A stretch of DNA of 64,000 nucleotides from positions 1 through 64,000 of the IMG/VR virus record IMGVR_UViG_3300042268_000478; one strand, written 5' to 3'. Shown here piece after piece: positions 10,722 to 60,628 of the stretch (its first letter is position 1; every line of letters begins with the position of its first letter). The notes under the pieces were generated by a model, which was not told the origin of the DNA, made no database searches, and saw nothing but the letters and a program-made list of their open reading frames with translations. The stretch comes from a virus (Duplodnaviria; Caudoviricetes). The position numbers were made by a program, and so were the translations under genes.

Positions 10722-10933
10722 ATAACTCCAATCTACTCGATTATTTATGCATAAATAATGTACTGCATTTTTATGTTTTTTCTATGTCGAAAGTAATAAG
10801 AGAGCTATTATTTTTGGCAAACTGTTATATATTACCACAAGGTGATGTTTTGTTTTAGGAAAACTTATGAGATTGAACATTTTAGCTATAATTATATTTT
10901 GCCTGGCTTTAGGCAACTAAAGGGGATAAAAAG

Positions 10934-12720: not shown

Positions 12721-12722
12721 AC

Positions 12723-13763: not shown

Positions 13764-14763
13764 TAATCAATTGCTCTTTTAATGCGATGGCAAGCGCTTC
13801 TGCAAAGTTAACAGCAACGGCATTGCCTATCATTTTATATCCACCCAAGAGTGAATCGTATTTAAACACGAAATCATCAGGGAATGTTTGGATTCTCGCG
13901 CACTCCCTAACACTTAACCTCCGGTAAAGGTGTTCTTGCCCTTTTTCAAAAATACGTTTGTCTTTGCCCACTTTAGGCATGACTGGCGCTTGCGGGTGTA
14001 TTGGGGCATGCCTACCCCCTGCTTGGATAGTGAATGACTGTTGATCCCATTCCCTCACGCGGTTCCTCGACATATAAATAGTGGAGAACCCGCCAGTTAA
14101 ATATTCATGGTTTGCAATTTTGCATTTATCTCCATTCGTCTTGTTTTTTTCTGCGGCAGGGATTGCAGAATCCGCCAAATCGCCGATTGCATCACGCAGT
14201 GGCACTTTGCTTTTCAATGGGGCAGGAAAATTGAACGAGAAACCTAAATCTGAACGGATTCCAACGAATATAACCCTCTTTCTATCTTGTGGGACGCCAA
14301 AGTTAGAGGCGTTCAATAATTCAACAGATAAAGTATACCCAGCATCTTTAAACATAGCTTTTATGTTTTTCACTGCTCCTTCATGCCTCTTGGATAACAT
14401 GCCTGACACGTTTTCAGCTAGGAAGAATAATGGTTTTTTATCTTTGAGCAAGCGGATAAATTCGAAGAACAACTGCCCACGCGGGTCATCAATGCCGCGC
14501 AGAGCCCCTGCTTCACTCCAGCTTTGGCAAGGCGGGCCGCCAATAATACCATCGCAATCAGGGATATCATCCGAAGGGATATCCCTGATGTCTCGCCTGT
14601 CGAGTCGGGTATGCTTGTGGTTTAACTCAAAAGTTTCCCATATATCGCTGTCGTATTCATTTGCCCACGGGATTGAAAACCCCGCTTTTTGAAAACCTAA
14701 ATCAAGTCCTCCGCAACCTGAAAACAGCGAGATGACTGTTGGGCTGTTATTTTTGCTCGTCAT
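13753..14763 (-). CDS. DNA (cytosine-5) methyltransferase, M.HaeIII-like
   Basis: All C5-MTase motifs; [32 protein letters not shown] closely resembles M.HaeIII/M.NgoPII. Confidence 0.95.
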
Positions 14764-14923
14764 TTACTATTCCTTTTCTATTTTGTAAATATTTATCAAT
14801 CGCATCGCGGACAACCCATGCCACAGAAACTTTATTTTCTTGAGCTATATTCTCAAGTTGTTCATAATGCTCTTGAGGAATAGAAGTCGATGTTCTAATG
14901 CTTTTTCTCTTGCTTGTTCGCAT
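14747..14923 (-). CDS. ribbon-helix-helix (CopG/Arc-like) regulator of the MTase operon
   Basis: [37 protein letters not shown]; GGAGA SD before ATG 14923. Confidence 0.8.
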
Positions 14924-14951
14924 AATAGTCTCCGTTACCTGCATCAATGTA

Positions 14952-14964
14952 CACCACAGTGGTG
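14952..14964. promoter_or_regulatory. candidate RHH operator
   Basis: Perfect palindrome CACCAC-A-GTGGTG about 30 nt upstream of the RHH start. Confidence 0.45.
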
Positions 14965-15003
14965 CAAAATCAAGTTAATTGCGGAAACTATAATGCTTAT
15001 TTT

Positions 15004-15390
15004 TCACTTTGAAGCCAACCATTGCTTTTCTTGTTCGCTCCATAGCTCAGGCATTTTTTTGCGGAGCTTTTCAACTCCCAACCCATTCAGGTTCTCCCCG
15101 GTAATAATTGCATGGATAATTTTCGGGGAAAGATACCTCAAGCGAATTGTCCTAGTTAAAAACGAAACATCCATGCCAAGAGCTTGCGCGAGTTCTTTGG
15201 TATTTTTTAATACTCCATCATCAATGAGTTTTTGCCAATAAAAAGCGCGAGCGATATTTAACGCCAGTGGCGTTTCGTTTTGGTTTTCTCCACTCGTTGC
15301 CACCAGTTCTTGGTGGTAGCGGTTCCGCCTCACTTTTATCGGGATAGTTATATGGATATTGCCGTTATCCAGTCTCGTTATTTTTTGCAT
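15004..15390 (-). CDS. HTH-containing protein typically encoded after DUF2924/serine recombinase pairs
   Basis: IARAFYWQKLIDDG..TKELAQALGMDVSFLTRTIRLRYLSPKII; overlaps the recombinase 3' end. Confidence 0.7.
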   Translation of the reverse strand: MQKITRLDNGNIHITIPIKVRRNRYHQELVATSGENQNETPLALNIARAFYWQKLIDDGVLKNTKELAQALGMDVSFLTRTIRLRYLSPKIIHAIITGENLNGLGVEKLRKKMPELWSEQEKQWLASK

Positions 15391-16663
15391 TTTTCTTTAG
15401 CTCCTCAAATATGTTTTCAAGTCCAGAGACTTTTAATTCCAGTTCCAGGCGGTCGTCAAATATTACTGCTGAGCCCAACAATAAGTTTGCCAGCCTGTGA
15501 CGTTCTCCGTGGTTCATTTCCTCCCACACCTCCGTGATAGGGGTAAACAAGTCCAATACTGCCTCGGCTTCGACCTCTAAAACCTCGCTAACTTGCGAAT
15601 AAAAAGACTTTGATTTTAGCACAAGCGCTATTTGCTCAAGCGCTAAGCCTTCAATTTCACCTGCTGCCATACGGTTCACGGGACAAGTCTTAATCGCTCT
15701 TTTTGCGTCCTTGTCGCACACATAGTAAAAATACTTTTTGTGCTTTTTCTTGGTATAAGTTGGAATCATCGCGCATCCGCAATGCCCACACCGCAAGATG
15801 CCTTTGAGCGGAGCAAGCGTCTCCATGCGCCCACGGTCTGAGTTTTTCATGGGTGCATTGGCTTTCAAGATTTCCTGGACACGGTTCCATATGTCCATTT
15901 CGATAATACCTTCCTGCTCGCCCTCGCAGATATGACCTTTGTAATTGACCTGCCCGATATAGGTATAATTATTCAAAATGCGGTAAATCTGGGGTTTTAT
16001 CCAATCTTTGCCTTGCCGGGTTTTTATGCCTTCAGAATTCAATTCGTGAGCTATCTGCTTTGGTGATTGGACTTCGATGAAGCGTTGGAATATACGGCGT
16101 ATAATCTCGGCGCCATCCGGTACGATTACCAGTTTTTTGTTGATAACTTCATAGCCCATTGGAACGGAACCGCCAACCCATTTGCCTTTCTTGCGACTGG
16201 CTGCCATCTTATCGCGGACACGCTCGGCGATGACTTCACGCTCGTACTGGGCGAAGGTCATCAGGATGTTGAGCATCATGCGCCCAGAGCTGGTGGAAGT
16301 GTTGATTTCCTGTGTTACCGCAACGAACGATACTCCCCACTTGTCCAGTTTTTTGCTGAGTTCGCCGAAGTCTAAAATTGAGCGTGAAAGACGGTCGATT
16401 TTATAGACTACAATTACGTCAATTAAGCCAGCTTCGGCATCAGCGAGAAGTCTTTGTAGTGCAGGACGTTTCATATTGCCACCGGAGAAGCCGTCGTCAT
16501 CATAGCGTTCAGGCAGACAGACCCAGCCGTTTGATTTTTGACTGGTTATGTATGCTTCGCCAGCTTCACGTTGAGCATCGAGGGTGCTGAATTCCTTCTT
16601 TACGTCGTCCTCCACACTCTTGCGAGTGTATATCGCGCATCGTTTTTTTGTTTGTCTGACCAT
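15365..16663 (-). CDS. large serine recombinase (integrase)
   Basis: CAIYTRKS catalytic motif, DDGFSGGNMKRP, KIDRLSRS, recombinase domain, zinc ribbon CGHC...C..C. Confidence 0.95.
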   Translation of the reverse strand: MVRQTKKRCAIYTRKSVEDDVKKEFSTLDAQREAGEAYITSQKSNGWVCLPERYDDDGFSGGNMKRPALQRLLADAEAGLIDVIVVYKIDRLSRSILDFGELSKKLDKWGVSFVAVTQEINTSTSSGRMMLNILMTFAQYEREVIAERVRDKMAASRKKGKWVGGSVPMGYEVINKKLVIVPDGAEIIRRIFQRFIEVQSPKQIAHELNSEGIKTRQGKDWIKPQIYRILNNYTYIGQVNYKGHICEGEQEGIIEMDIWNRVQEILKANAPMKNSDRGRMETLAPLKGILRCGHCGCAMIPTYTKKKHKKYFYYVCDKDAKRAIKTCPVNRMAAGEIEGLALEQIALVLKSKSFYSQVSEVLEVEAEAVLDLFTPITEVWEEMNHGERHRLANLLLGSAVIFDDRLELELKVSGLENIFEELKKNAKNNETG

Positions 16664-39098: not shown

Positions 39099-41102
39099 AT
39101 GAGTGATTTTCTGCTGATTGAAGCAGCCGGTGGCGGCAAGCCCAAGGTAAAGGGGCTGGCGTACTCTGGCGGCAAGATGAACTTGCCGGGATGGAAACAT
39201 CCGGTGGTCGTTGAGCTTGCCGGGATGGAAATCCCGGACAATGTGCCGCTATTGACCAACCATCAAAACAAAACCACTTCGCGGGTTGGGATGGTGATGG
39301 CAACGGTCAAAGACAACTCGTTGGAGATTGACGGCGAGATTATCTCTGAAAACGGCGACGCCAAAGACATCGTGGCGCAAGGTAAATCCGGCGCTGACTG
39401 GCAACTTTCCATCGGAGCGGATGTGGTCAAGTGCGAATTCGTCAAAGCCGGTAGCCGTGAGGTCAACGGCAAGATGTGCGACGCGCCGTTCTATCACGTT
39501 AAACAATCTGTCCTGCGTGAAGTGTCGGTCGTCGCAGTAGGCGCTGACTCCAGCACAAAAATGAAAGTAACAGCAAGTTTTAACCTTAACTCAAACCAAG
39601 GAGGCGACATGCCCGAAGACAACAAACAAGAAGTTCAAGACAAGGAAACTCCCGAAATGAACACAGAAGAACAAACTGAAACCACCGAGCAGGAGCAGGA
39701 AATCCAGGAACAGCCCAAGGATGAGGCTGAAGCTGTGGCTACTCCTCCGACCATTCAAGCCAGCGCACAGGAAACGGCGCAGGATGCAATCAAGGCAGAA
39801 CGCAAGCGTGTTTCTGAAATTCAGGCGATTTGCGACGGCGAATATCCAGAAATCGAACGCGAAGCCATCTCCAAAGGCTGGGAGCCGGAAACCGTAACCG
39901 CCAAGGTATTGAAAATGATTCGTGCTGAACGTCCGAGCGCCGATGTGAACATTTCCATTAAGAGCAAGCCCGAGGGCAATGAAATGCGTAAAACCCTAGA
40001 GGCGGCAATGAGTCTGCGTGTCGGACTTAGTGCTGACGAGCTTGAAAAGAGCTACGGCGGCAAAGTTGTCGAAGCAGGAATGACTGAAATGGACATGCCG
40101 CTTCGCCAGATGTTGGTTGAATGCATGAAACTGGACGGCATTCCGGTACCGCGCGGTTTTGACAACGATTCGATTCGCGCCGCTTTCAGCACTGTAAGTT
40201 TGCCCGGCATTCTTTCAAACGTAGCCCATAAGAAGTTGCTGCAAAGTTTCAAGGCTCAGCCGGTCATCGCCACCAAGCTGTGTTCCAGCGGCGATTTGAA
40301 CGACTTCAAGGAAAACGACCGCTTCCGCTTGACAGACGTTGGCGATTTGCTCCCGGTAGCCGCCGATGGTGAAATCAAAGACGGTGGACTTGTTGAGGAA
40401 ACCGCCAAGAACCAGCTCGACACCTACGGCAAAAAGTTTTGCCTGACTCGCAAAATGATTATCAACGATGACCTCGGTGCGTTCATGAAAGTACCGACCG
40501 CAATGGGCAACCGTGCGGCACGGCTGATTGACCAGCTCTTTTTCAGCCGTTTGTTGAGCAATCCGGTTCAGAGCGATAATAAGGCTCTGTTCCATACGGC
40601 TCACAAAAACTTGATTAGCGGGGCGACTTCAGCTTTGGGTAGCGACAGCCTCAAGAAAGCAATCCAGCTTTTCCTTGACCAAGTCGATGCGGATGGGCAA
40701 CCCATCAGCGTTGAGCCGAAATACTTGCTTGTGCCGACCGCACTCAAGCATTTGGCGATTGAACTTACCCAAGGTGCAACACTGGTTATGAGCGGTGGCA
40801 ACGACAATACGGTTCGCCCGGCGATTAACGTAATCGCAGATGAAAACCTGCAGGTTGTCAGTTCTCCGTATCTTGGCAATGCGGCATATACCGGCTCATC
40901 TCAAACCGGATGGTATTTGTGGGGCAATCCGCAGACCGTCGACAGTTGGGAAATCGGCTATCTCAAAGGCAAACGCACTCCGACTGTTGAGCGCGGCGAT
41001 ACTGATTTCAACACTTTGGGCATGTGGTTCAGAGTTTATTTCGACCTTGGCGTTCGTGAGCAAGACCATCGTGGCATGGTCAAAGCCAACGGCGCAGCGT
41101 AA
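39099..41102 (+). CDS. prohead protease - scaffold - major capsid fusion (Mu gpT-like capsid domain)
   Basis: N-terminal PLL.NH, WQLSIG, EVSVV.VGAD; acidic linker; DFK, TYGK.F.LTRKMIINDDLGAF, YLLVP. Confidence 0.88.
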   Translation: MSDFLLIEAAGGGKPKVKGLAYSGGKMNLPGWKHPVVVELAGMEIPDNVPLLTNHQNKTTSRVGMVMATVKDNSLEIDGEIISENGDAKDIVAQGKSGADWQLSIGADVVKCEFVKAGSREVNGKMCDAPFYHVKQSVLREVSVVAVGADSSTKMKVTASFNLNSNQGGDMPEDNKQEVQDKETPEMNTEEQTETTEQEQEIQEQPKDEAEAVATPPTIQASAQETAQDAIKAERKRVSEIQAICDGEYPEIEREAISKGWEPETVTAKVLKMIRAERPSADVNISIKSKPEGNEMRKTLEAAMSLRVGLSADELEKSYGGKVVEAGMTEMDMPLRQMLVECMKLDGIPVPRGFDNDSIRAAFSTVSLPGILSNVAHKKLLQSFKAQPVIATKLCSSGDLNDFKENDRFRLTDVGDLLPVAADGEIKDGGLVEETAKNQLDTYGKKFCLTRKMIINDDLGAFMKVPTAMGNRAARLIDQLFFSRLLSNPVQSDNKALFHTAHKNLISGATSALGSDSLKKAIQLFLDQVDADGQPISVEPKYLLVPTALKHLAIELTQGATLVMSGGNDNTVRPAINVIADENLQVVSSPYLGNAAYTGSSQTGWYLWGNPQTVDSWEIGYLKGKRTPTVERGDTDFNTLGMWFRVYFDLGVREQDHRGMVKANGAA

Positions 41103-50580: not shown

Positions 50581-51981
50581 ATGCAACAGGTGCAAATGTA
50601 TTTAAGGGCGAATTCGACCTTGGCTACGCTGGTTGATGAGTTCAATCAGACGCTGTCGTCGTCGAGCGTCCCGGCGATTGTGCGGGGGATGCAGGTTGAA
50701 TTGATTTTGACTTTGCTTGATCGTGACGGCGAACCTTATTCACCACTGGATTTCGATTCATGGGAGTTCGTACTGGCAACCGACTGGGATGCTGGAACAC
50801 CACCGCAAATCTTGGTAAATTCAGGTATTACTATTGACGGTAGCAACGTCCATGTGCCGATTCTGAACACCAACACCGCTGAACTTGCGGCGGCATTGTC
50901 GACAAAGGAATCAATCAAAATTGGCGCTGAACTCTGTGGATTTAATGCAGGAGAAACCACTCCAGCATTTGTTTTACAGTTCAATCTTGGCATCCGCAAC
51001 CGGCGCAGTTCGTCAGGCACCGGCACGGCTGAACCTGTCGGCGACGGAACTTACAGCGCGGCGCAGGTTGATGCGTTGTTCGCCGCCGGATACGATGTTC
51101 AATTCTCAATCGACGGCGAAACTCTCTGGCATGAAGAACAGCTCTTTGGCGACCAGTATTTTCGCATCCGCAATGCGGCATATGAAAACAGCGCCTATTC
51201 TGACGCAATCCAGCTTCTACCCGGAGCCATCGGCGAACCCGGCGAGAGTTCTTACATCTACGTTGCCTGGGCAACCGCCGATGACGGGACTGGATTTGTC
51301 ACTGAACCGGGCAACCTGACCAACGCACACAAATACATCGCGTTCCTGGTCAGCGAGGTTGAAACCGCAGAGCTTTCCGCATCGGATTTTGCCGGACTAT
51401 GGACAAAATATCGCGGTGAAGATGGCCAAGGCGTGGGTGATATGACCAAGGCGGTCTATGATTCAGATGACGACGGCAAGGTAAACGCCGCCGTCCATGC
51501 CGACAGCGCTGGAGCCGTTGACTGGTCTAACGTCGGCAACAAACCATCGGAGTTTACGCCTGAAGTTCACAATCACAGCATAGCGACATTGTCCGACCCG
51601 GTGAGGCAGAAAGCCGTCACCGAAAGCAACCCGGCAACGCTGTATGTCGATACGCCGATTATCCGCAAAAGTTCGCATAGCAGTTCAACGCTGAATATTG
51701 ATTTTACCGCGATAAAAGACACGTTCGACGGTGAAGCTTATTCCGTGGTCAATGGAGATTTTTTCACTTGGGAATATCACGTTCCGGCGTCTGTGAATAT
51801 TACCGGGATAATCGTTGGTTCGCTCAATTCGACCATGACTGGCATCAGCATCCCGGAGGCAATTGATCTGATTGGTGGCAATAACACCGTCCATGTCTTT
51901 GCGGTGCGCGGAGTCTATAAATCCGGGGCAGTAAACAATCTTGCTTTGCAGGTCAACTATGCCTACAGTTATGAGGGGTGA
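50581..51981 (+). CDS. tail fibre/baseplate anchor protein
   Basis: GDMTKAVYD.DDDGKV..A..AD and WSNVGNKPSEFTPEVHNH fibre motifs; short Gly-X-Y stretch. Confidence 0.7.
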   Translation: MQQVQMYLRANSTLATLVDEFNQTLSSSSVPAIVRGMQVELILTLLDRDGEPYSPLDFDSWEFVLATDWDAGTPPQILVNSGITIDGSNVHVPILNTNTAELAAALSTKESIKIGAELCGFNAGETTPAFVLQFNLGIRNRRSSSGTGTAEPVGDGTYSAAQVDALFAAGYDVQFSIDGETLWHEEQLFGDQYFRIRNAAYENSAYSDAIQLLPGAIGEPGESSYIYVAWATADDGTGFVTEPGNLTNAHKYIAFLVSEVETAELSASDFAGLWTKYRGEDGQGVGDMTKAVYDSDDDGKVNAAVHADSAGAVDWSNVGNKPSEFTPEVHNHSIATLSDPVRQKAVTESNPATLYVDTPIIRKSSHSSSTLNIDFTAIKDTFDGEAYSVVNGDFFTWEYHVPASVNITGIIVGSLNSTMTGISIPEAIDLIGGNNTVHVFAVRGVYKSGAVNNLALQVNYAYSYEG

Positions 51982-53504
51982 GCATGGCAAAAATTCCATT
52001 TAAATTCAACCCGCTTGGCTGTAAAAATCTGACGGTCAACTCTGCTCGATACGGTACGGCTGGAGTGTTCAACTACCTTTCAAACGGACGTTGCAATCAG
52101 AGCGCGATGCAGATTTCAGGGACGGTTTTGCTGTCTCATCGGGTCTATTCGCAGTATCTGTTTTCAGGCGGCACGGCGACTCAAACCGAGATTAACTATG
52201 GCGCAAGACAGTACGTCAGCGGCGGCACGGCGATCAGCGCGGCGGTCAATTCAAACGGATATCAATATGTTTATTCAGGCGGCGCGACGCAGGAAGCCAA
52301 GGTCAATTACAGCGGACGCAAGATTGTCAGCAACGGCGGCACGGCGGTAAGTGCGCAGGTTGCTTCGCGTGGTTACATGAGCGTTTGTTCAGGCGGTCAA
52401 GCCCACGGCGCAGTAGTCAGTTACGGCGGTTATATCTATTTGAGCAACGGCGCTTACGCGAGCGGAGTTGAGATTAAATCCAACGGTAGCGTGTACCTCA
52501 ACGGCGATTGTGAAGCGATCGACACCATAATTTCAAGCGGTGCGCAGTTTATCGTCAACAACAGCCAGCGGGCAAATGGCGTAAATGTTCAGAGCCAAGG
52601 CAGATTTTATGTATCGTCGGGCGGTACTGCTTTGAATGTCAGTGCGCAACCCAACTCCTACATTATCGCCGGAATTTACGGCTATGATGAACGGACGGTA
52701 GTCGATGGTTCGCACGAATCCGGCGCATTCAGCTTGAGCGATGGGGTTGCAAATAACTGGCTGATTTACGGCGACCGCCAGTATGTCTATTACGGTGGGA
52801 CGGCAATTTCAACCACGCTTCATTCGGGCGGCTCGCAGGTGGTTTCATTCGGCGGCGTTGCCAGCGATACCATCGCCAATTCCTACGGCAGATTATATGT
52901 CTACAGCTCGGGAACGGCGAAAAATCCAATCGTTAGTTCGGGCGGTTACATGGAACTTCAGCAAGGCGGCATCGGCGAAAATATCACGCTTGAAAGCTAT
53001 GCGTCGATGGGAGTTTATCAATTTTCGTTCGCTTCCGGCACGGTGATGTCCAGCCGCTCGTATCAGTATGTTTCGCTTGGAGCGTCATCGGTTGATGCAG
53101 TGATTATGTCGGGTGCGACCCAGTTTATTTCACAGGCATCTTATGCCAGCGGCACGGTGATTTCAAGCGGCGGTTATCAGGTGCTGTCTTACGGTGGGCA
53201 AGCCTACGACACAGTAATCTCGCCGGGCGGTCAGCAACGGATTTCGCACTACTGCACCGCAGGAGGATTGTCGGTATGTTCAGGCGGTCGCGGCTATTGC
53301 TACAGCCAAAGCGTCGCCAACTCCGTGACCATCGACGAGGGCGGCTACTATGACCTTGGTGCACACTGCAAAGGCTCGATTTATCACGTCGCTTTGGGAG
53401 GGACATTGAACGTCGGCAACAATGCCAGTGCTTTGGCGGTGACATCCGAAGCTGGAGCAGTAGTCAACAGCGGAACAAGTTCATTTATCGAATACACAAC
53501 ATAA
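51978..53504 (+). CDS. AIDA-I/TibA-type 19-aa repeat beta-helix protein without signal peptide or barrel
   Basis: About 20 repeats such as TAISAAVNSNGYQYVYSGG and YASGTVISSGGYQVLSYGG, plus an AIDA-type linker VDGSHESGAFSLSDGVANN. Confidence 0.85.
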   Translation: MSMAKIPFKFNPLGCKNLTVNSARYGTAGVFNYLSNGRCNQSAMQISGTVLLSHRVYSQYLFSGGTATQTEINYGARQYVSGGTAISAAVNSNGYQYVYSGGATQEAKVNYSGRKIVSNGGTAVSAQVASRGYMSVCSGGQAHGAVVSYGGYIYLSNGAYASGVEIKSNGSVYLNGDCEAIDTIISSGAQFIVNNSQRANGVNVQSQGRFYVSSGGTALNVSAQPNSYIIAGIYGYDERTVVDGSHESGAFSLSDGVANNWLIYGDRQYVYYGGTAISTTLHSGGSQVVSFGGVASDTIANSYGRLYVYSSGTAKNPIVSSGGYMELQQGGIGENITLESYASMGVYQFSFASGTVMSSRSYQYVSLGASSVDAVIMSGATQFISQASYASGTVISSGGYQVLSYGGQAYDTVISPGGQQRISHYCTAGGLSVCSGGRGYCYSQSVANSVTIDEGGYYDLGAHCKGSIYHVALGGTLNVGNNASALAVTSEAGAVVNSGTSSFIEYTT

Positions 53505-53512
53505 GGACAAAA

Positions 53513-54748
53513 ATGCAAAATCTAACCATAAAATGCGGTGCGCAGCCAAGCGCACCAGAGGTACGACAGCCTCCAGTCTTTGCGCCGCCGCCTGAACAGC
53601 TCACGCAAGAAGCGGTTGAGGAAATCAGATTTGATTATAATGACGGCGTGAGGGTTTCGTTTCCCAAATCGGGCAAGTACCGCTGTATGCTGACTGATAT
53701 GGACAGCGGGGCGGTAGTCTATAACATGGACGTTGAACCGGGGGTAACCGTTGCGAGTGTGAAGAAGTTTTTTGTGCCGTACAGAATCGATATTTTTGGA
53801 ACTAAATCCAAGAAAAACGTGTTTTTTCACGACTTTAATCCGAAAAACAGAGATGTGCTGGTGCAAATCCCAATCGGGACGCTCGGCGACACTATTGCCT
53901 GGTTTTCCTACGTCGAGCGTTTTCAGCAAAAACATCAATGCCGATTACATGTGTCGATGGCTCCTTGGATTGCGGAGATTTTCAAGACTCAATATCCCGA
54001 TATTCACTTCATTACGATGGATGAGGCTGCAAAACTCAAGCCGTATGCAACCATCAATCTCGGGCTGTTTTTTCAGGACAACACAGATAATCAGCCGGTT
54101 GATTTTCGTCAGGCAGGCTTGCATAAAACCGCCGGGTGCATTCTCGGGCTGGATGACCTATCAGAAGTACCACCAAGGGTGGATTTGTCAGCGCTACGCT
54201 CAATCAAAGAGCCGTATGTGGTGATAGCGACGCAAGCAAGCAGTCAGGCAAAATACTGGAACAACCCCAACGGCTGGCACGAGGTCATCGCTTATCTGAA
54301 ATCTAAAGGCTACCGGGTGCTGTGCATCGACAAAAATCGAGTCTGCGGCGCCGGTGTGGTGTGGAATCATATTCCGCATGGGGCTGAGGACTTTACAGGC
54401 GATTTGCCGTTGCAGAAGCGCATTAATCTTATCAAAGATGCCGACATGTTCATCGGCTTGAGTTCGGGATTGAGCTGGTTGGCGTGGTGCTGCAAAGTTC
54501 CGGTACTGCTCATCAGCGGATTTACCGCCGAAAACAACGAATTTCACACGCCGTACCGGGTAATAAACCATCGTGTCTGCCATTCCTGCTGGAACGATAT
54601 GCGCTGCGATTTCGACCACTTCGACTTTCTGTGGTGTCCGCGCCACAAGAACACCGAACGGCAATTCGAATGCACAAAATTCATCACGCCGAAAATGGTA
54701 ATCGATAAAATTAAAATCATCAAACACGGAGGCAAATCATGCAAATAG
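53513..54748 (+). CDS. autotransporter O-heptosyltransferase (Aah/TibC, BAHT family)
   Basis: FDYNDGVRV, S.KKFFVPYRI, GTLGD..AW, QAKYWNN..GW, DFTGDLPLQ.R, GLSSGLSWLAW, iron finger CHSCWND..FDHFDFLWCPRHK.T.RQFECT. Confidence 0.93.
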   Translation: MQNLTIKCGAQPSAPEVRQPPVFAPPPEQLTQEAVEEIRFDYNDGVRVSFPKSGKYRCMLTDMDSGAVVYNMDVEPGVTVASVKKFFVPYRIDIFGTKSKKNVFFHDFNPKNRDVLVQIPIGTLGDTIAWFSYVERFQQKHQCRLHVSMAPWIAEIFKTQYPDIHFITMDEAAKLKPYATINLGLFFQDNTDNQPVDFRQAGLHKTAGCILGLDDLSEVPPRVDLSALRSIKEPYVVIATQASSQAKYWNNPNGWHEVIAYLKSKGYRVLCIDKNRVCGAGVVWNHIPHGAEDFTGDLPLQKRINLIKDADMFIGLSSGLSWLAWCCKVPVLLISGFTAENNEFHTPYRVINHRVCHSCWNDMRCDFDHFDFLWCPRHKNTERQFECTKFITPKMVIDKIKIIKHGGKSCK

Positions 54749-54984: not shown

Positions 54985-55473
54985 ATGGACACAAAATTCG
55001 ATTCTTTGCTTGGGCAGATGCGCGAATCCGACGGTTCAGGCGGCGAAATTAACTACACCATCAACGGTCAGGAGCCAGACGAAAGCGGTAATTTTGCCGT
55101 TACGGCCGCCGGGGTCGGTGCGGCTGAGGATGTTCATGCTCACATTATCGCTGACGTTACCGGTCTGCAAAGTGCTTTGGACGACAAATCTGATGCCGAA
55201 CACAGTCACGAGCTTGTTGGCTCGGTGGCGGTTGGCGGCGAAACCGTCAGCGGCGAGATTACTTTGGAGGCGTCGGACAATATTCTGTTATCCGCTTCCG
55301 GTCAGGAAATAACCATCACCGGCGAACCATATGCCGTCACCGTCGCCGCATCGATTCCCGATTCCAATACCAGTAATACCGAACCGGTCAAAATCTTTTC
55401 AGGCACGCAGGCTGACTGGGATGCTTTCACGCCCGAAAGCAACGTCCGTTATGTGGTTTTCATTCATGAATAG
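54985..55473 (+). CDS. tail fibre repeat protein (HxH repeats)
   Basis: TING..PD..GN, HAH.IADVTGLQSALD.K...HSH. Confidence 0.7.
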   Translation: MDTKFDSLLGQMRESDGSGGEINYTINGQEPDESGNFAVTAAGVGAAEDVHAHIIADVTGLQSALDDKSDAEHSHELVGSVAVGGETVSGEITLEASDNILLSASGQEITITGEPYAVTVAASIPDSNTSNTEPVKIFSGTQADWDAFTPESNVRYVVFIHE

Positions 55474-55479
55474 GGAGGC

Positions 55480-55914
55480 GTGATGCTTTACACAATAAAC
55501 AATATTTACCCGGATATGAATTTCGCCTTTACCTTGACCGCGGGGACTTTGGGACTGGCTCCGCTGGCGCATACTCACGGCATTGGCGATATAAGCCAGC
55601 TTGCCGACGAACTTAACGGTAAAGCTGATGGCGGGCATCAGCACGAGGCGGTTCCGGCAGTAATCGTCGACCGGGATCGGTTGACTGGGAATATAACTCT
55701 AACCGGCGCTGGTTCAGTCGCCGCAAATAAATCGGGTTCAATTATAACCATCGCTTCAGCCCCGGCTCAATCCGGCAATGTCGCGGCGTTCCGCAACGCC
55801 AATCCGGCAAGACGGCACACCATGCTCAAACTCTTTTTCGGCGACTGCCGCAGCATCGACAGCGATTCAGAAAACTTAATTTTTACGGAGGACAGCAATG
55901 CTCCAGCATCTTGA
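55480..55914 (+). CDS. tail fibre repeat protein, paralogue of 54985..55473
   Basis: HTH.IGDISQL.DEL.GK...HQH, then G.ITL...ITI, as in the preceding gene. Confidence 0.65.
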   Translation: MMLYTINNIYPDMNFAFTLTAGTLGLAPLAHTHGIGDISQLADELNGKADGGHQHEAVPAVIVDRDRLTGNITLTGAGSVAANKSGSIITIASAPAQSGNVAAFRNANPARRHTMLKLFFGDCRSIDSDSENLIFTEDSNAPAS

Positions 55915-58900
55915 CAAACAGCGGGGAACAGGTATAAAAAATCTCTTGCTCGCTAACGACGCCAATGAAACCACGGTAAAAAAAGTGCTTTCATACACTT
56001 CTGCCGAAGGCGAAAAACAGCTCTGGCCAAACGCGCCGACGCATCTGCGTATTGAGTCAAATTACGATGACTCGACCGCCGTCAGAATCGAAAACGGCAA
56101 AATCTATGGTCATCCGGTAATTGATCCGGGCAGCGACCTTTACAAGCCGTTGGAAATCACCGTCACGCCGTTCCCCATAAATTCCGCATGGACGCTGGAA
56201 GCGGAGAATTTCGACCTTGGGCAACACGCCGGTAAAATGTTCCACGGTAAACAAACCGTCACTTTTGATGTGTCTGTACCGTCCGTCGTCGGGCATTTTC
56301 TGCACCGGATCAGCGCCGTGCCGAACGCCGGTGAAGCAGAACGAGCCGTTTTCAGTTTCTGGAGCGTGAAGTTTTCCGAATCCGCACTGATCCCTAAACA
56401 CTGGTGGAGTTTTGATGACGAAACCCTTGCAGACCAGGTTGGAAACATGCCGCTGGTCAAGGAGACCACCGAGGGGACGACCACCTACACCGACGGAGTA
56501 AGGCGCAAGGCGTTGCAGGCTATTTACGTCAACGGCGCGACTGAACCAAACACCTACCGGGCTACAGTCAATCCATCCATGGCAAACGGCTTGAGCCTCA
56601 GCATGTTCGGGCAAATCAACCGGGGCGGCAGTTTTGGTTTTGTTGATTTAAATGATTACAACGCCACCAACGGCAATCATTTCGCCTTTAACTGGTATTA
56701 TCGGCAACCGATTAATCTGCTTCTGGACGGATACGGCACCACGACACCGGAATCAACCGCATATGACCGCCTTGAACAAGGCGAATGGCATCATCTGGCG
56801 TTGACCATGTCGCCGCAAATTGATTTGGCTAATCATCCCGATATTGAGGTTGACTACAGCGAAAACCAGTACGGCACAATTCGCTATGCCTCGCCGCATG
56901 TTGACTACAGCACAGAATGGGTCTGTGATTATTACAACAATTATTTAACACAGGAGTTTTACCTGGCGAAGTTCTATATTGACGGCGTGCTTCATTCCGA
57001 AAAGCTCATGAGCTTTTGGCCTGGAGGTTTCAATACTCCCGGCAACGGCGTGATAACATTAGATTTCAACAATTCTAATGAACAGGACGGTTATTATCCT
57101 GACCGAGTCGATGAACTTAAAGTCTTTGAACATGAGTTGTCGTTAGCGGAAATCCGCGGCGAATGTTCGTTGATTGGCTTGCAGTTTGAGAGCGACAACC
57201 CGACCGAGGGCGGCGGTGTAACTGTAGAGCCAATCGAACGCTCCGGGCGCAGTCGCGACGGCGAACCACCGGACATTGCCGCCGTGCCGCTGGACTGTCG
57301 ACTCAAGGCGTTTGTGATTGACAATCAGACCATCGCCGTCGGCGGCAACTTCCGCGATTTTTTCCTTGAGCGGCTGGAGACGGAGTTTCCTAACCTTGAC
57401 GCGACCGAGTTCAATTTTCGCAATGGTTTTTCGCACCGCTGGAGCCGGGACTTCAACTACCTCTATAATATGTGGGAGCTGTACCGCGACTATCAGCCGT
57501 TAATTGTTGCGGCGATGGACGATGCAAGCAACTGGTCGGTTGACAACTCACCGGTGACGATGCTCGGGCGCTGGCAGAACTCCACCGGGCTGATGCGCTT
57601 CGGCGACGCTTACGACGGCACGGACGTTGTCACCACCGATTGCGCCGATATTGTTCATTTTGCCTACTTGCGTTTGCCGCAGCCAATGACCGAGGAGAGT
57701 TCACATGCAGTGGATTGGAACGGCAATCAGCTTGATTTTAGCTATTCGCGCGATAAAGCGGCAAGCAGCATCAAGGTGAATCAGGAGGGCTATCTACCCG
57801 AGGCCAGGCGCAAGTACGCCTACTTTGGCACATGGCTCGGAACCGGAGGCGCGTATCAACATTCGTTGAACGATCTGACCTTTCATTTAGTTCCGGTCGG
57901 CTCGACAATTCCGGCGTTCACCGGAACGATGACCAGGCGTAACACCGCTGAAACCCACACGCAGGGCGACGTGACTTTCCAGCTTACCGGCGAGGAAACT
58001 TACGTCTGCGATTTTTCCGCATTTCAAACCGAGGGTGATTATCAAATCCATATCCCGTCGGTCGGCTACAGCCATGTGTTCAAAGTCGGCAAAGCCGCTC
58101 TCGGCAAGGCGTTCTGGACGCATTGCCGGGGCATGTTCCATCAGCGTTCGGGCTGTGATTCGGTGGTCAATCCGTACACAAACTGGGAGTTTCCTGGAGC
58201 GGCACACTACTGGACGTGGGAGTCGAATTTCATCTGCGACGACCAGAGTTACAACAACTGCGCCACGGTCGACGGCACGACCTACGGCGAAATATTCCCG
58301 CAACGGCATTTTTCAATGATTCCGAATAACGTCACCGGCAAACTTTACCGCGATTTGCGCGGCGGCTGGTTCGACGCGGCCGACTTTGACCGCAGGCCCT
58401 ACCACTTCTACTGCGTCCGGGATTTGGTTGAGGCGTATTTGCGCTTTCCGCAGAATTTCACCGACAGCCAGCTTGACCTGCCCGAAAGCGGCGACGGCAT
58501 ACCCGACGTCCTTTCGGAAGCTGAATGGGGCTTGGACGTCTGGCGTCGGGCGCAGAAAACCAACGGTGGCGTGGCCTGCTGGATTGAGGCAGACGGACAC
58601 GAATCAGGCTGGCCGTGGGAGTCGGATAGAAAGTATTACATCGGCATGCCGAACCGTAAGGACTCGTTGGAGTACGCTCAATGCGCTGCCAAGTTTGCCC
58701 GCGCTTTGCGGCTTGCCGGTACTCCGTCGGCATTGGCCAAGGCCGACGTTTACACCGAATCGGCCGTCAGGGCGTTTAACTTCGGTATTAATCCGGTCAA
58801 CGCCGCCACGCTGGAGTTTACTCAAACCAACAGCTCAAACAGTCAGTTTGACTTCAGCTACACCGAAGCGGCGGAGCGCGCCGACTGGCATATCGTTCCC

Positions 58901-59806
58901 GCCGCTGCGGCATTGCTGGCGCTGACCCGCGAGCCGAGGTTCGCCAAACATGTCACCGAATCGGCATGGGACAATTATTTCAGCTCATTGCAAGGCGATG
59001 AGAATAATTTTGCTCAGCGATGCTGTACGGAACTGCTGTTTGATTTGACGGCGAATTTCCCGGACTATTCAAAGGCTCTGCGTGAGTTTATCATCGCCAA
59101 GGCCGACCAGTGGCAAGGCTATCAGGAGCAGCAACCGTATTTCGAGATGAACTGGCCGCCGAACCATCAATTTTACCAGTATGTAAGTTGGGGCGTGGGA
59201 CATCCTGAAAAGCGCGGCAAAGCCTTTATCTACGCATGGCTGGTGACCGGCGACGACTCGTACCGGGACTCGGCGTTGCTGGCGATGGACAACTTTGCTG
59301 GGTGCAACCCGATGGGCAGGAGTTTGACCACCGGGCTTGGGAAAGTGTCGCCGATTCATTTCCTCAACAGTTGGTTGCCTCGGGCTGAAATTGAACTCGG
59401 ATTGCACGAACCGGTGCCGGGCATTACGCCGTATACCTATATCGGCGACGGCGCAGGCAAAAGCACATCGCACGGGTTCTGTTTGTGGAAAGGCGCGAGG
59501 ACGGATTTTGGTTTCGACGAAATGACCCAAAACATCCTGCCCGGTGGCTACAGCCAAACGGTCGCGCCGTCGCGCGGCAACGTCGCCCAGTGGTTGCAAA
59601 TCAACTGGCCGTTGTGGCGGCACGTGTTCGAGCTTGAGGCGTACAATGTCGCCCAAAGCGAATTCACAGTCAGTGAGACCGTCAGCGGTAAAGCCTTTAT
59701 GGCCGGATGCCTGATGGGCAGCGGCGTTACGCCCGATCCGGCATGGAAAACCGCCAGCCCGGCAACCGAAAGATACGAGCCGGAAGGCTTGGTCTATTTA
59801 CCATAA
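55898..59806 (+). CDS. LamG/ConA-like domain + CelD-type Ig domain + glycoside hydrolase family 9
   Basis: LamG: WWSFDD..WHHLALT..FYIDG..VDELKVFEHEL; Ig: IKVNQEGYLP; GH9: DLRGGWFDAAD, ESGDGIPDVLSEAEWGLD, GCNPMGRSLTTGLG..P.H, QSEFTV. Confidence 0.85.
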   Translation: MLQHLDKQRGTGIKNLLLANDANETTVKKVLSYTSAEGEKQLWPNAPTHLRIESNYDDSTAVRIENGKIYGHPVIDPGSDLYKPLEITVTPFPINSAWTLEAENFDLGQHAGKMFHGKQTVTFDVSVPSVVGHFLHRISAVPNAGEAERAVFSFWSVKFSESALIPKHWWSFDDETLADQVGNMPLVKETTEGTTTYTDGVRRKALQAIYVNGATEPNTYRATVNPSMANGLSLSMFGQINRGGSFGFVDLNDYNATNGNHFAFNWYYRQPINLLLDGYGTTTPESTAYDRLEQGEWHHLALTMSPQIDLANHPDIEVDYSENQYGTIRYASPHVDYSTEWVCDYYNNYLTQEFYLAKFYIDGVLHSEKLMSFWPGGFNTPGNGVITLDFNNSNEQDGYYPDRVDELKVFEHELSLAEIRGECSLIGLQFESDNPTEGGGVTVEPIERSGRSRDGEPPDIAAVPLDCRLKAFVIDNQTIAVGGNFRDFFLERLETEFPNLDATEFNFRNGFSHRWSRDFNYLYNMWELYRDYQPLIVAAMDDASNWSVDNSPVTMLGRWQNSTGLMRFGDAYDGTDVVTTDCADIVHFAYLRLPQPMTEESSHAVDWNGNQLDFSYSRDKAASSIKVNQEGYLPEARRKYAYFGTWLGTGGAYQHSLNDLTFHLVPVGSTIPAFTGTMTRRNTAETHTQGDVTFQLTGEETYVCDFSAFQTEGDYQIHIPSVGYSHVFKVGKAALGKAFWTHCRGMFHQRSGCDSVVNPYTNWEFPGAAHYWTWESNFICDDQSYNNCATVDGTTYGEIFPQRHFSMIPNNVTGKLYRDLRGGWFDAADFDRRPYHFYCVRDLVEAYLRFPQNFTDSQLDLPESGDGIPDVLSEAEWGLDVWRRAQKTNGGVACWIEADGHESGWPWESDRKYYIGMPNRKDSLEYAQCAAKFARALRLAGTPSALAKADVYTESAVRAFNFGINPVNAATLEFTQTNSSNSQFDFSYTEAAERADWHIVPAAAALLALTREPRFAKHVTESAWDNYFSSLQGDENNFAQRCCTELLFDLTANFPDYSKALREFIIAKADQWQGYQEQQPYFEMNWPPNHQFYQYVSWGVGHPEKRGKAFIYAWLVTGDDSYRDSALLAMDNFAGCNPMGRSLTTGLGKVSPIHFLNSWLPRAEIELGLHEPVPGITPYTYIGDGAGKSTSHGFCLWKGARTDFGFDEMTQNILPGGYSQTVAPSRGNVAQWLQINWPLWRHVFELEAYNVAQSEFTVSETVSGKAFMAGCLMGSGVTPDPAWKTASPATERYEPEGLVYLP

Positions 59807-59828: not shown

Positions 59829-60251
59829 ATGAATCGTTTCCAAGAAATCAAACGGCTCATCGTATTTGCGGATGAACTCCGGCTTGACAACCGTGTGATT
59901 GTCCGCAAGTATCGCAATTATGAGCTTGCGTCAATCTACAACGGCATCGGGCCGGACGCATTCCCCGATTGGCTTCGGGGGTTGATAACCGGACTGCATC
60001 CAACGCTGGCAGTCGTAGCGTTCATCCACGATATAGAGTGGCACGAATCAGACGGATCGGAGGAGAAGTTCACCGAATCCAACCGCCGTTTCAAGGCCAA
60101 CGGCTACAAGGCTGCCAAAGCCTTGCATGGCTGGTGGAACCCGCGGCGCTACCTGGTCATGAATCAGGCACGAAAGTTCGGCAATCTCTGCCAATGGTTC
60201 GGCTGGTTCGGCTGGCTTGAAGCACAAAACAAAACCAATGGAGGAAAGTAA
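59829..60251 (+). CDS. HD-motif protein (DUF1353/phospholipase A2-like)
   Basis: YNGIGP...FIHDIEW...N.RF; GGAGG SD. Confidence 0.45.
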   Translation: MNRFQEIKRLIVFADELRLDNRVIVRKYRNYELASIYNGIGPDAFPDWLRGLITGLHPTLAVVAFIHDIEWHESDGSEEKFTESNRRFKANGYKAAKALHGWWNPRRYLVMNQARKFGNLCQWFGWFGWLEAQNKTNGGK

Positions 60252-60253
60252 AC

Positions 60254-60628
60254 ATGTTCAAAATCATCATCACACTTAGTCTTATCATAGTTATCACGGG
60301 ATGTTCCCACAATGTTTCAACTTATTCGGACGGTGTCGGGCTTGAAACCACATTCCGGCCGGATTCGGGCAACTTCGGGATAATCCTGCGCTACGGCAAA
60401 ATTTGGAACCTTGTCGCCCGCGAAAACACCGAAGCCGAAATGACAGGTTCAAATGAACTCGATGCCAAGGGCAATCCGGTAAGTGGCAAAACCGACGGCA
60501 ACGTAAAAATCAAAATCGGCACGCAGACCACCGGCTACGAGCGCGACGTTATCAAACTGCTCAAGGACAACCCCGAGGCAATCAAGGCATTTTACGATTC
60601 AAAGAATCAGGTAAATTCAAAGCCCTAA
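60254..60628 (+). CDS. lipoprotein (spanin-like candidate)
   Basis: Signal MFKIIITLSLIIVITGC; last gene of the late operon. Confidence 0.6.
   Translation: MFKIIITLSLIIVITGCSHNVSTYSDGVGLETTFRPDSGNFGIILRYGKIWNLVARENTEAEMTGSNELDAKGNPVSGKTDGNVKIKIGTQTTGYERDVIKLLKDNPEAIKAFYDSKNQVNSKP

Follow-up and report, generated by a model that had tools for sequence, protein, structure and literature searches.

A GH9-family protein encoded in the tail module of a temperate phage: a probable virion-borne depolymerase of host exopolysaccharide

Introduction

What is the function of a cellulase-family (GH9) protein that is encoded among the tail genes of a phage? The question is raised by P0001, the product of a 1302-aa ORF in the window analyzed here, which comprises positions 1 to 64,000 (64,000 nucleotides) of the 106,924-bp IMG/VR record IMGVR_UViG_3300042268_000478. 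Below we argue that P0001 is probably a virion-borne (tail-fibre) depolymerase that would attack the exopolysaccharide (EPS) of the phage's own host, and weigh this reading against four alternatives.

Gene and domain architecture

The ORF call and translation returned the same gene as the initial annotation, 55898-59806 on the plus strand. A Shine-Dalgarno sequence (GGAGG, 55887-55891, plus strand) is located 6 nt upstream of the ATG at 55898, within the 3' end of a tail-repeat gene (55480-55914) with which the ORF, as originally described, overlaps, sharing 17 nt; the position of the start codon is conserved in the homologs P0002-P0005. Altogether, approximately 25 full-length homologs of P0001 were identified in the homolog search. 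The motifs quoted in the initial annotation are all present at their positions: IKVNQEGYLP (residues 625-634), GGWFDAAD (residues 822-829, 58361-58384), ESGDGIPD..E (residues 863-874), GCNPMGRSLTTGLG (residues 1135-1148) and QSEFTV (residues 1253-1258). The reported lack of a signal peptide holds as well, the N-terminus being non-hydrophobic, unlike those of the bacterial forms: when hydrophobicity is measured as the highest 11-residue Kyte-Doolittle mean within the first 45 residues, the median is 0.99 for the phage-type forms versus 2.68 for the bacterial forms, and the N-terminus is hydrophobic in 31 of 34 bacterial forms versus 1 of 34 phage forms. The protein consists of the following parts, from the N-terminal sandwich through the LamG, X and Ig domains to GH9:

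55940-56377, plus strand: N-terminal beta-sandwich, residues ~15-160 (AF2 model m8929c0f590f9, strands 17-158)
56393-57187, plus strand: ConA/LamG-type jelly roll, residues ~166-430 (fold match and Foldseek)
57188-57292, plus strand: linker, residues 431-465, modeled with low confidence (pLDDT down to 69-74, and below 50 at residues 439-442)
57293-57742, plus strand: domain X, residues ~466-615, strands and a long helical hairpin (structure models)
57743-58087, plus strand: CelD-type Ig-like domain, residues ~616-730 (PF02927)
58088-59803, plus strand: GH9 (alpha/alpha)6 catalytic domain, residues ~731-1302 (PF00759 and AF2 model)

The proposed GH9 identity was confirmed both at the HMM level (Glyco_hydro_9, PF00759, residues 743-1158, E = 1.3e-19, 71.2 bits versus a cut-off of 27.7) and by fold matches to solved GH9 structures. 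The AF2 model of residues 460-1302 (pLDDT 95.5, pTM 0.94) aligns with 3x17 (Z 30.9, rmsd 3.5 over 519 residues), CelD (1clc; Z 29.8, rmsd 2.9 over 501 residues), BoGH9A (Z 25.9) and the GH9 xanthanase 6fhn (Z 24.0, rmsd 3.3 over 511 residues). The CelD-type Ig domain is likewise genuine (CelD_N, PF02927, residues 621-722, E = 1.7e-10, 42 bits versus a cut-off of 24.6) and aligns to its counterparts in CelD, 3x17 and BoGH9A. Domain X has no counterpart in solved GH9 structures, with the structural alignments beginning only at model residues 155-163, and is common to P0001 and the bacterial forms of about 870 aa (the BLASTP alignment to P0029 begins at residue 469). Taken together, the catalytic half (residues ~466-1302, domain X, Ig and GH9 barrel) is predicted to be a divergent inverting beta-1,4-glycanase, probably an active one.

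The phage form differs by its 460-residue N-terminal extension. The LamG/ConA-like domain of the initial annotation stands on its fold, with Pfam Laminin_G_3 remaining below the cut-off (21.9 bits versus 27.6): the jelly roll (residues ~160-430) matches domain 4 of AbnA (Z 16.7, rmsd 2.7, 183 residues aligned; Foldseek E = 6e-10). This lectin-like fold is found also in the Pan3 tailspike and in CBM2 of the Dit protein of phage J-1, and the domain probably binds carbohydrate. It is the fastest-evolving portion of P0001, with 49% identity to P0002 versus 71% in the GH9 part. This gradient, with the catalytic end better conserved, is opposite to that of the usual receptor-binding proteins and as such speaks against the favored reading. 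The beta-sandwich is confined to the phage-type forms and, across 1.84 billion representative proteins, was seen only together with the GH9 family of P0001; it matches no known virion-anchor domain, which is another point against a place in the virion.

Tail-module context

The location in a phage tail module is borne out by the structural genes upstream of P0001 on the same strand (portal, head protease/capsid, cement, head-tail joining, tail tube and tape-measure genes), by conserved synteny and by the immediate neighbors:

54985-55473, plus strand: 162-aa PTR tail-repeat paralog (PF12789, 27.5 bits; phrog_8443 'tail fiber protein', E = 5.9e-6)
55480-55914, plus strand: 144-aa PTR tail-repeat protein (PF12789, 26.4 bits; phrog_8443, tail fibre)
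59829-60628, plus strand: two downstream companions, a 140-aa protein with PLA2-like motifs (P0070) and a 124-aa lipoprotein (P0071)

The matches of both small ORFs to PF12789 (PTR, 'phage tail repeat like') are slightly below the Pfam cut-off. The GH9 gene closes the tail-fibre gene set. As to the occurrence of GH9 in other phage tail modules, which the initial annotation suggested looking for, the GH9 gene stands behind two small PTR genes at a minimum of seven loci of related phages. No GH9 was found among 50,697 phage isolate records, nor among the BFVD viral structures. The order TMP, ..., AIDA-repeat protein, GT9, 80-aa ORF, 162-aa PTR, 144-aa PTR, GH9, 140-aa ORF, lipoprotein is shared by five loci (L002-L005 and L011) and partly retained in L006 and L012. 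The 162-aa paralog is syntenic in L002-L006 and L011; P0070 and P0071 always come after GH9 at the loci L002-L005, L011 and L012, where P0070 is 65-72% identical. P0070 also gave a lead to PF09056 (Atlas).

Furthermore, PTR and GH9 are fused in frame in numerous relatives (P0007/8, P0021-24, P0027, P0037, P0040, P0077, P0080 and the GH9 ORF of L006). The segment that is fused in these phages corresponds to the N-terminal segment of the 144-aa PTR protein, which matches P0023 and P0007 at their N-termini (BLASTP E = 4e-18) and 49% identical to the L006 ORF over 78 residues (BLASTP). The fixed place after the PTR genes and the in-frame fusions argue that P0001 is part of the tail fibre, and we propose the 144-aa protein as its partner or anchor. 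As an observation to the contrary, the trimeric symmetry that is usual in fibres is not evident for P0001; to our knowledge, GH9 enzymes are monomers.

Alternatively, P0001 could be a soluble, non-virion depolymerase that is produced late, freed at lysis and thins the slime surrounding the burst cell such that the progeny escape and neighboring cells become accessible. A late gene without a signal peptide fits release by lysis, no recognizable anchor domain or trimerization signal was found in P0001, and the better conservation of the catalytic part points the same way; however, the in-frame fusions to PTR tail-fibre segments in many relatives, the fixed place in the fibre gene set and the overlap with a PTR gene count against this alternative, which appears unlikely.

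Bacterial relatives and origin

The nearest cellular relatives of P0001 are signal peptide-bearing proteins of about 870 aa (850-930 aa) from Lentisphaerota and other PVC bacteria. In EPS clusters, their genes stand between those for Wzy and the flippase, the neighbors in two such loci (L071 and L035) including Poly_export, Wzy_C, flippase, GT2, GT4 and WecG. At least two EPS gene classes are present within 10 kb in 40 of the 78 genome loci, and in 30 of 44 among the loci of 15 kb or longer, although many of these genomes are close kin, so the counts overstate the independent support. That only half of the bacterial loci contain EPS genes counts against the EPS interpretation. We found no description in the literature of an EPS locus type with GH9 in PVC bacteria.

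In the tree, the 18 phage-type rows form a single clade (SH-aLRT 100) that is nested among bacterial rows. The MAG that contains the closest phage copies also has a copy of its own (865 aa), coupled to a polysaccharide pyruvyl transferase. The phage is temperate and its host probably belongs to Lentisphaerota, the host link coming from MAG binning and the taxonomy of the relatives. A single capture of the phage GH9 from the secreted 850-930-aa enzymes of Lentisphaerota/PVC Wzx/Wzy EPS loci thus appears the probable origin. With such a source, in bacterial slime-synthesis clusters, the phage most likely uses the enzyme to cut the sugar coat of its host.

The same data bear on the possibility that P0001 is an auxiliary metabolic gene product, a cellulase or xyloglucanase that aids the lysogen in digesting dietary or plant beta-glucans. 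GH9 is mainly a cellulase family, and both a CMC-active rumen viral GH9 (PMC10465536) and glycoside hydrolases of Lentisphaerae phages (PMC11361711) have been interpreted in this manner. Given that P0001 lacks the secretion signal of 31 of 34 cellular relatives, that its gene belongs to the late tail operon instead of occupying a moron position and has relatives with fused fibre segments, and that the bacterial genes belong to EPS synthesis rather than polysaccharide utilization loci, a metabolic role seems distinctly improbable.

Active site

58373-58384, plus strand: DAAD motif, Asp826 and Asp829, aligned to the DAGD of 3x17, 6dht and CelD
59660-59662, plus strand: Glu1255, predicted catalytic acid, in the motif xE[FY]T[VI]xET

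By alignment, Asp826 and Asp829 are the counterparts of the two aspartates of the GH9 DAGD motif, and Glu1255 is likely the catalytic acid: the structural alignment to CelD ends 21 residues beyond it, at position 575 of the CelD chain, and the catalytic acid of CelD is Glu555. None of the residues D826, A827, D829 and E1255 varies among 50 homologs. For DAAD, which the initial annotation noted as a possible sign of altered specificity, one correction applies: it is not specific to the phage forms but prevails in the bacterial subfamily, and both aspartates are retained. In the alignment, the whole subfamily lacks the conserved His/Arg ('PHHR') signature that follows GLG, which sets it apart from canonical GH9 more tellingly than DAAD does and is a point against the favored reading; activity could therefore be altered or lost.

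Accordingly, P0001 might be a catalytically dead or weakened receptor-binding protein, with the GH9 cleft and LamG only binding a host glycan, as the lost signature, the Gly to Ala change in DAGD and the presence of a lectin-like domain would allow. The chances of this are slim, considering that D826, D829 and E1255 are invariant in the 50 homologs from phages and bacteria, even at identities as low as ~25%, and that the secreted, presumably active bacterial enzymes carry identical deviations. Finally, a role in replacing or assisting the endolysin, for which one could cite the possible lysis pair downstream (the PLA2-like protein and the lipoprotein) and the lack of matches to Phage_lysozyme, Amidase_2, SLT, GH25 and Peptidase_M15_4 in the 106,924-bp record, is very improbable, as the fibre fusions and EPS-locus relatives point elsewhere, GH9 occurs only once in the record and we know of no GH9 that cuts peptidoglycan.

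Proposed function

The reading of P0001 as a virion-borne EPS glycanase is supported by the PTR fusions, the Wzx/Wzy-locus relatives and the nested phage clade. Under this scenario, the signal peptide of the captured enzyme would have been replaced by the beta-sandwich and the ConA/LamG lectin-like domain, and P0001 would enter the virion via the small PTR fibre protein of the immediately preceding gene. During adsorption, the lectin-like domain may grip the slime polymer of the host while the GH9 cleft hydrolyzes its backbone, probably a decorated xanthan- or xyloglucan-like beta-1,4-glucan, which would allow the particle to reach the cell surface.

Comparison with known systems

P0001 shares the Ig plus (alpha/alpha)6 architecture (Z 26-31 over ~500 residues; profile E-value of 4e-77 for 3x17), both aspartates of the DAGD motif and the C-terminal Glu with the Ig-GH9 endoglucanases C. 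thermocellum CelD (1clc), metagenomic LC-CelG (3x17), A. acidocaldarius Cel9A (3ez8) and the B. ovatus xyloglucanase BoGH9A (6dht). The identity is only ~20%, and P0001 differs in having Ala for Gly in DAGD, no His/Arg after GLG, an insertion before the Glu motif, the additional domain X, the N-terminal extension of the phage form and the location of the gene in a phage tail module.

Glycanases are encoded inside several EPS synthesis loci, namely BcsZ (GH8, cellulose), PslG (Psl), ExoK (succinoglycan) and AlgL (alginate). The bacterial relatives of P0001 resemble these in being putative self-polymer-trimming enzymes within a synthesis cluster but belong to a different family, GH9.

The GH9 xanthanases PspXan9 and MiXen cleave the beta-1,4-glucan main chain of a decorated bacterial slime that is produced by the Wzx/Wzy route (PMC10881899). 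PspXan9 (6fhn/6fhj) has the same fold as P0001 (Z 24.0); the sequences are distant (14-16% identity), and the xanthanases are catabolic enzymes of xanthan-eating bacteria, with C-terminal CBM modules, that are not found in EPS loci or phages. The CMC-active GH9 of the rumen virome is encoded on a viral contig, flanked by viral genes, and was read as metabolic (Yan et al., 2023, PMC10465536); with ~850 aa and 79.5% identity to a Ruminococcus cellulase, it is, unlike P0001, not a conserved tail-module protein and has no phage-specific N-terminal half.

The depolymerases known from phage tailspikes and tail fibres are trimers with a central parallel beta-helix, including all five classes among 105 Klebsiella enzymes (10.1101/2025.09.09.675204), whereas P0001 contains an (alpha/alpha)6 barrel. 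P22/K1F-type tailspikes and the Klebsiella capsule depolymerases resemble P0001 in belonging to the tail-fibre gene set, in combining an N-terminal structural part with a glycan-cleaving part, and in their presumed role of penetrating the capsule or slime.

A GH9 gene in the tail module

The window covers the first 64 kb of a 106,924-bp IMG/VR virus record, and the ORF for the GH9 protein (P0001, 1302 codons) lies there downstream of an extended set of virion genes. Upstream, on the same strand, are genes for a methyltransferase, the portal, a protease/capsid fusion, a cement protein, a head-tail joining protein, the tail tube and a 1081-aa tape measure; no ORF of sheath size was seen, so the tail is siphovirus-like. 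The tape measure gene is followed by eight genes, mostly without annotation, which include those for an AIDA-repeat protein and a TibC-like heptosyltransferase, and then, in this order, by an 80-aa ORF, two paralogous genes for small proteins with the 'phage tail repeat like' (PTR) motif and a PHROG tail-fibre match, the GH9 gene, and the genes for a 140-aa protein and a lipoprotein. The features to which we refer below are:

39099-41102 (+), 667-aa fusion of head maturation protease and major capsid protein (phrog_4523, E 1e-98)
51978-54748 (+), 508-aa AIDA-repeat protein (PF16168 x7, E 1.8e-30), then 411-aa TibC/Aah-like heptosyltransferase (TibC_1st + GT9), within the tail module
54985-55473, PTR-162, small PTR protein
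55480-55914, PTR-144, small PTR protein (144 codons)
55898-59806 (+), P0001, GH9 protein
59829-60251 (+), P0070, 140-aa protein directly 3' of the GH9 gene
60254-60628 (+), P0071, 124-aa lipoprotein (lipobox ITGC), directly after P0070
60844-62577 (+), right after the tail and companion genes, amidoligase (phrog_2443, E 4.7e-71), then two gamma-glutamyl cyclotransferase-like genes

A GGAGG site ends 6 nt 5' of the ATG of the GH9 gene, and the ORF overlaps the preceding PTR-144 ORF by 17 nt. We considered programmed frameshifting from the PTR gene into the GH9 gene but rejected it, since the two genes overlap by 17 nt in the window and in the related loci L002 and L011 but by only 4 nt in L003-L005, and since the GH9 gene has a strong SD site of its own.

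Several neighbors are of interest in their own right. The pairing of the AIDA-repeat protein with a heptosyltransferase, which is 63% identical to its counterpart in L002, suggests a second, sugar-coated fibre. P0070 is found directly 3' of the GH9 gene in every case and is the best conserved gene of the neighborhood (65-72% identity); its sequence contains phospholipase A2-like YxGxG and HDxxW motifs, its nearest named clusters in the ESM Atlas are PF09056 (Phospholip_A2_3, score 0.89) and DUF1353, and searches against Pfam, PHROGs and the PDB gave no match above threshold. P0070 could be a lysis or entry phospholipase, and P0071 may be a spanin-like protein or one that serves superinfection exclusion. 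The trio of the amidoligase and the two gamma-glutamyl cyclotransferase-like genes recurs in L003 and L005. ARAGORN detected no tRNA genes in the 64-kb window, and the phage body has a GC content of about 0.50, up from 0.35 in the first 6 kb.

GH9 fold and catalytic residues

All the motifs from which the initial annotation recognized a GH9 enzyme are present where it placed them, and the Glyco_hydro_9 profile (PF00759) matches residues 743-1158 well above its curated threshold (71.2 bits against a cut-off of 27.7, E 1.3e-19; 72.6 bits in a six-frame search). Comparison with PDB sequences using phmmer retrieved GH9 enzymes only, namely 3x17, BoGH9A (6dht) and CelD, and a profile built from 50 homologs improved the PDB match to E 4e-77; PHROGs contain no family for P0001. 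The AlphaFold2 model of residues 460-1302, obtained with a 50-row alignment (pLDDT 95.5, pTM 0.94), superposes on solved GH9 enzymes as an (alpha/alpha)6 barrel, and groups with the Ig-GH9 enzymes in Foldseek and VIA-align comparisons. The Z scores are 30.9 to 3x17, 29.8 to CelD (1clc; rmsd 2.9 over 501 residues), 27.5 to Cel9A, 25.9 to BoGH9A and 24.0 to the GH9 xanthanase 6fhn; for the next fold class, the epimerases, Z does not exceed 16.

The GGWFDAAD motif aligns with GGWHDAGD of 3x17 and with the same motif in CelD and BoGH9A. Its two Asp residues, D826 and D829, do not vary among 50 homologs with identities as low as about 25%, and neither does E1255, the likely catalytic acid. In the structural alignment to CelD, which ends at CelD residue 575, this Glu lies 21 residues before the end; the offset fits Glu555, the catalytic acid of CelD, and a placement of E1255 opposite the Asp pair is thus predicted. 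The HMM alignments end at about residue 1176, short of the E1255 region, and a phmmer search of the PDB with the last 102 residues, aimed at aligning the Glu motif, recovered no GH9 enzyme and nothing relevant.

The replacement of the canonical DAGD by DAAD, which had been read as a possible sign of altered specificity, is real but is not phage-specific. The Gly position is occupied by Ala, Cys or Thr in the phage forms and by Ala in many bacterial forms, and DAAD is the rule in many of those with signal peptides (P0041-P0063); DAGD is kept in one bacterial clade of the subfamily. A different element is missing, namely the His/Arg stretch after GLG (PROSITE GH9 signature 1), which reads 'PHHR' in 3x17 and BoGH9A. 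The post-GLG region of P0001 is GLGKVSPIHFLNSW, with LNS at the position of the 6dht HHR, and there is no conserved His or Arg column after GLG across the 50 homologs. At the sequence level, the real departure from canonical GH9 is thus the lost His/Arg signature, not DAAD; this loss is the mark of a divergent subfamily and does not outweigh the HMM and fold evidence. A DFDRRxxH motif beside the Asp pair is conserved across the subfamily, with R832, R833 and H836 invariant, and the notion that it compensates for the lost signature is speculation.

Non-catalytic domains

The CelD-type Ig domain noticed initially was confirmed by the CelD_N profile (PF02927; residues 621-722, immediately N-terminal to the catalytic domain; 42 bits, cut-off 24.6) and by its structural alignment to the corresponding domains of CelD and 3x17. 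The LamG/ConA-like domain, also noticed initially, was upheld by fold matches but not by the Pfam threshold, the Laminin_G_3 (PF13385) score of P0001 being 21.9 bits, under the cut-off of 27.6; the same domain is among the precomputed Pfam domains of three homologs (P0002, P0014 and P0021). The model of residues 1-620 (pLDDT 86) can be divided into four segments.

Predicted segments of the N-terminal part of P0001 (segment; residues; basis)
Beta-sandwich; about 15-160; residues 1-620 model
ConA/LamG jelly roll; about 160-430; model and fold matches
Floppy linker; between jelly roll and domain X; residues 1-620 model
Domain X; 466-615; model, absent from solved GH9 structures

The VIA and Foldseek matches of the N-terminal model all fall on the jelly roll (residues ~160-430), which is closest to carbohydrate-binding domain 4 of AbnA (Z 16.7, rmsd 2.7, 183 residues), followed by the clostridial toxin Hc-N lectin-like domains (Z 15-16), and also matches a cyanophage tailspike and the CBM2 of the phage J-1 Dit. 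The first 450 residues were not found joined to any other catalytic head: a word-based search returned the same family only, and HMMER against 1.84 billion representative proteins yielded 26 matches, in which every full-length protein has the GH9 motif and the short ones look like fragments. Identity to the homolog P0002 is 54% in the N-terminal sandwich, 49% in the jelly roll and 71% in the GH9 domain. Such faster divergence of the N-terminal part may indicate that what varies is the binding specificity or the attachment partner, with the chemistry on the backbone fixed.

Bacterial relatives and exopolysaccharide loci

A scan of 185,579 species genomes produced 404 confirmed loci, and the best 80 of the 404 belong overwhelmingly to Victivallaceae, Victivallales and Lentisphaeria, with others from Opitutales, Limisphaerales, Kiritimatiellia and Planctomycetia. 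The bacterial forms, of 740-965 aa, start at about residue 460 of P0001 and show 28-36% identity to it. A hydrophobic N-terminus is present in 31 of 34 bacterial forms versus 1 of 34 phage-type forms. Pairs of bacterial-type genes also occur: an IMG/VR contig (L009, 9617-14632) carries two tandem ORFs of 783 and 772 aa, and a Lentisphaerae GWF2 MAG (L056, 9812-15944) encodes GH9 ORFs of 846 and 892 aa (match 10001-15695) with a 290-aa ORF between them.

The GH9 genes of two bacterial loci (L071, 7503-17168, and L035, 12514-17558) are flanked by genes for Poly_export (Wza-like), Wzy_C, a type I phosphodiesterase-family protein, a flippase, GT2, GT4 and WecG. In a tblastn census of the genome loci L013-L090, at least two classes of exopolysaccharide (EPS) neighbors were located within 10 kb in 40 of 78 loci, a count that overstates the independent support because many of the genomes are close kin, and in 30 of the 44 loci of 15 kb or more. 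The pattern spans Lentisphaerota and Verrucomicrobiota orders, the locus type being represented in Lentisphaeria, Victivallales, Opitutales and Limisphaerales, with the gene order Wza-like exporter, Wzy_C, secreted GH9, type I phosphodiesterase-family protein, flippase, GT2, GT4/WecG. We found no description of a GH9-bearing EPS locus of this type from PVC bacteria in the literature.

Because of this gene context, the cellular GH9 appears to be a secreted glycanase of a Wzx/Wzy exopolysaccharide pathway. Hydrolases or lyases sit in the cellulose, Psl, succinoglycan and alginate loci, and the GH9 of the PVC loci would, by analogy, be comparable to these. The MAG 'Lentisphaerae bacterium ADurb.Bin242', which contains the closest phage copies, has a bacterial-type GH9 of its own (865 aa). 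The gene for it begins before that for a polysaccharide pyruvyl transferase has ended (the pair at L095 7813-11285, G001:C8), which hints that the target polymer is pyruvylated. From the MAG binning and the taxonomy of the relatives, we infer a phage host in Lentisphaerota.

Origin of the phage genes

A quick maximum-likelihood tree was built from 50 catalytic regions, with all rows kept and midpoint rooting. All 18 phage-type sequences fall into one clade (SH-aLRT 100), whose sister group, with a support of 89, is the DAGD bacterial clade. Both in turn branch from within DAAD bacterial clades, and the sequences that look most like canonical GH9 enzymes are on the far side of the midpoint root. 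The topology fits a scenario in which a phage lineage would have captured the gene from bacteria once and then diversified, the direction of transfer being dependent on the root.

Phage relatives and a proposed association with the tail fibre

Among 5.8 billion proteins there are about 25 full-length homologs, of 1300-1500 aa with a few of about 1900 aa. At the genomic level, the full-length form was identified in five IMG/VR loci (L002-L006) and in two loci of the ADurb.Bin242 MAG (L011 and L012). Five of these (L002-L005 and L011) keep the order seen in the window, that is, tape measure/baseplate genes, 80-aa ORF, PTR-162, PTR-144, GH9, 140-aa ORF and lipoprotein. The placement of the gene in the tail module by the initial annotation is thereby corroborated, with synteny kept in L002-L006, L011 and L012 and tail genes upstream. 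A tblastn search of 50,697 phage isolate records gave no match to P0001, and Foldseek against BFVD revealed no credible viral protein of the GH9 fold (best TM-score 0.26 by target length and 0.19 by query length).

In many other homologs (P0007/8, P0021-24, P0027, P0037, P0040, P0077 and P0080), a PTR segment (MxxYTINGxYPD...HxH) opens the N-terminus of the GH9 protein, with 31-49% identity to the separate 144-aa protein of the window; in the viral contig L006, the in-frame PTR-GH9 fusion can be read directly in the DNA. In the window itself, PTR is a separate gene that overlaps the GH9 gene and is not fused to it. Because gene fusions are standard evidence of working together, the GH9 protein can be tied to a tail-fibre component. 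We propose that P0001 would be carried by the particle on a PTR fibre, that its lectin-like domain would bind the host slime, and that the GH9 cleft would hydrolyse a beta-1,4-linked backbone; the GH9 xanthanases PspXan9 and MiXen cut decorated beta-1,4-glucan slimes (PMC10881899).

The PTR fusions and the conserved synteny also bear on two alternatives. It is possible that P0001 is a soluble late enzyme, and both lines of evidence speak against this. An auxiliary metabolic gene (AMG) is likewise possible: metabolic helper functions have been ascribed to viral GH9 genes (PMC10465536), and Lentisphaerae phage glycosidases have been read as AMGs (PMC11361711). Besides the fusions and synteny, the location inside the tail module, the replacement of the signal peptide by a 460-residue phage-only extension and the identity of only 34-36% to cellular forms argue against an AMG. 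A lysis enzyme is a further possibility, for which there is one loose end: Phage_lysozyme, Amidase_2, SLT, GH25 and Peptidase_M15_4, five endolysin families, have no match in the whole 106,924-bp record (controls worked). The GH9 chemistry and the EPS context of the relatives speak against such a role. A protein that only binds its glycan, although possible, is at odds with the invariant D826/D829/E1255 triad.

Implications and comparison with known depolymerases

Phage depolymerases set host range and are wanted as anti-biofilm tools. The new element here is a predicted tail-associated depolymerase with an unusual fold, an apparently traceable origin and an unusual host phylum. Beyond the fibre-borne enzyme, we entertain, as a tentative reading to which we give somewhat less than an even chance, the possibility that a PVC-phage lineage swapped the beta-helix tailspike for the 'self-trimming' enzyme of the host slime locus, mounted on a PTR fibre, with specificity provided by a rapidly evolving lectin domain. 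If true, a tail fibre would here be seen for the first time to bear an (alpha/alpha)6 barrel, probably a non-trimeric one, as its catalytic head. The case may then point to a general route to depolymerases, in which phages take from each EPS locus the glycanase encoded there to act on the polymer of that locus.

The proposed depolymerase is of interest in several respects. A different catalytic fold would serve this function in phages of Lentisphaerota, a phylum of guts and digesters with hardly any cultured members, and its origin can be traced to a glycanase in the Wzx/Wzy slime locus of the host. A rule for substrate prediction would follow, whereby the phage enzyme targets the polymer made by the locus in which its cellular relative is encoded. 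The analysis also brings to notice a conserved, undescribed type of PVC EPS locus that combines Wza, Wzy, GH9, a phosphodiesterase, a flippase and GTs, and it cautions that viral glycoside hydrolases are not all metabolic helper genes.

We found no paper describing a GH9 enzyme as a tail-fibre or tailspike component. Nearly all depolymerases characterized so far are trimers with a beta-helix, encoded by phages that infect Proteobacteria and Firmicutes. When 105 depolymerases of Klebsiella phages were surveyed, only beta-helix-centred classes were recovered (10.1101/2025.09.09.675204). In contrast to these beta-helix-centred enzymes, the catalytic core of P0001 is, in the model, an (alpha/alpha)6 barrel, and neither a parallel beta-helix nor a beta-propeller.
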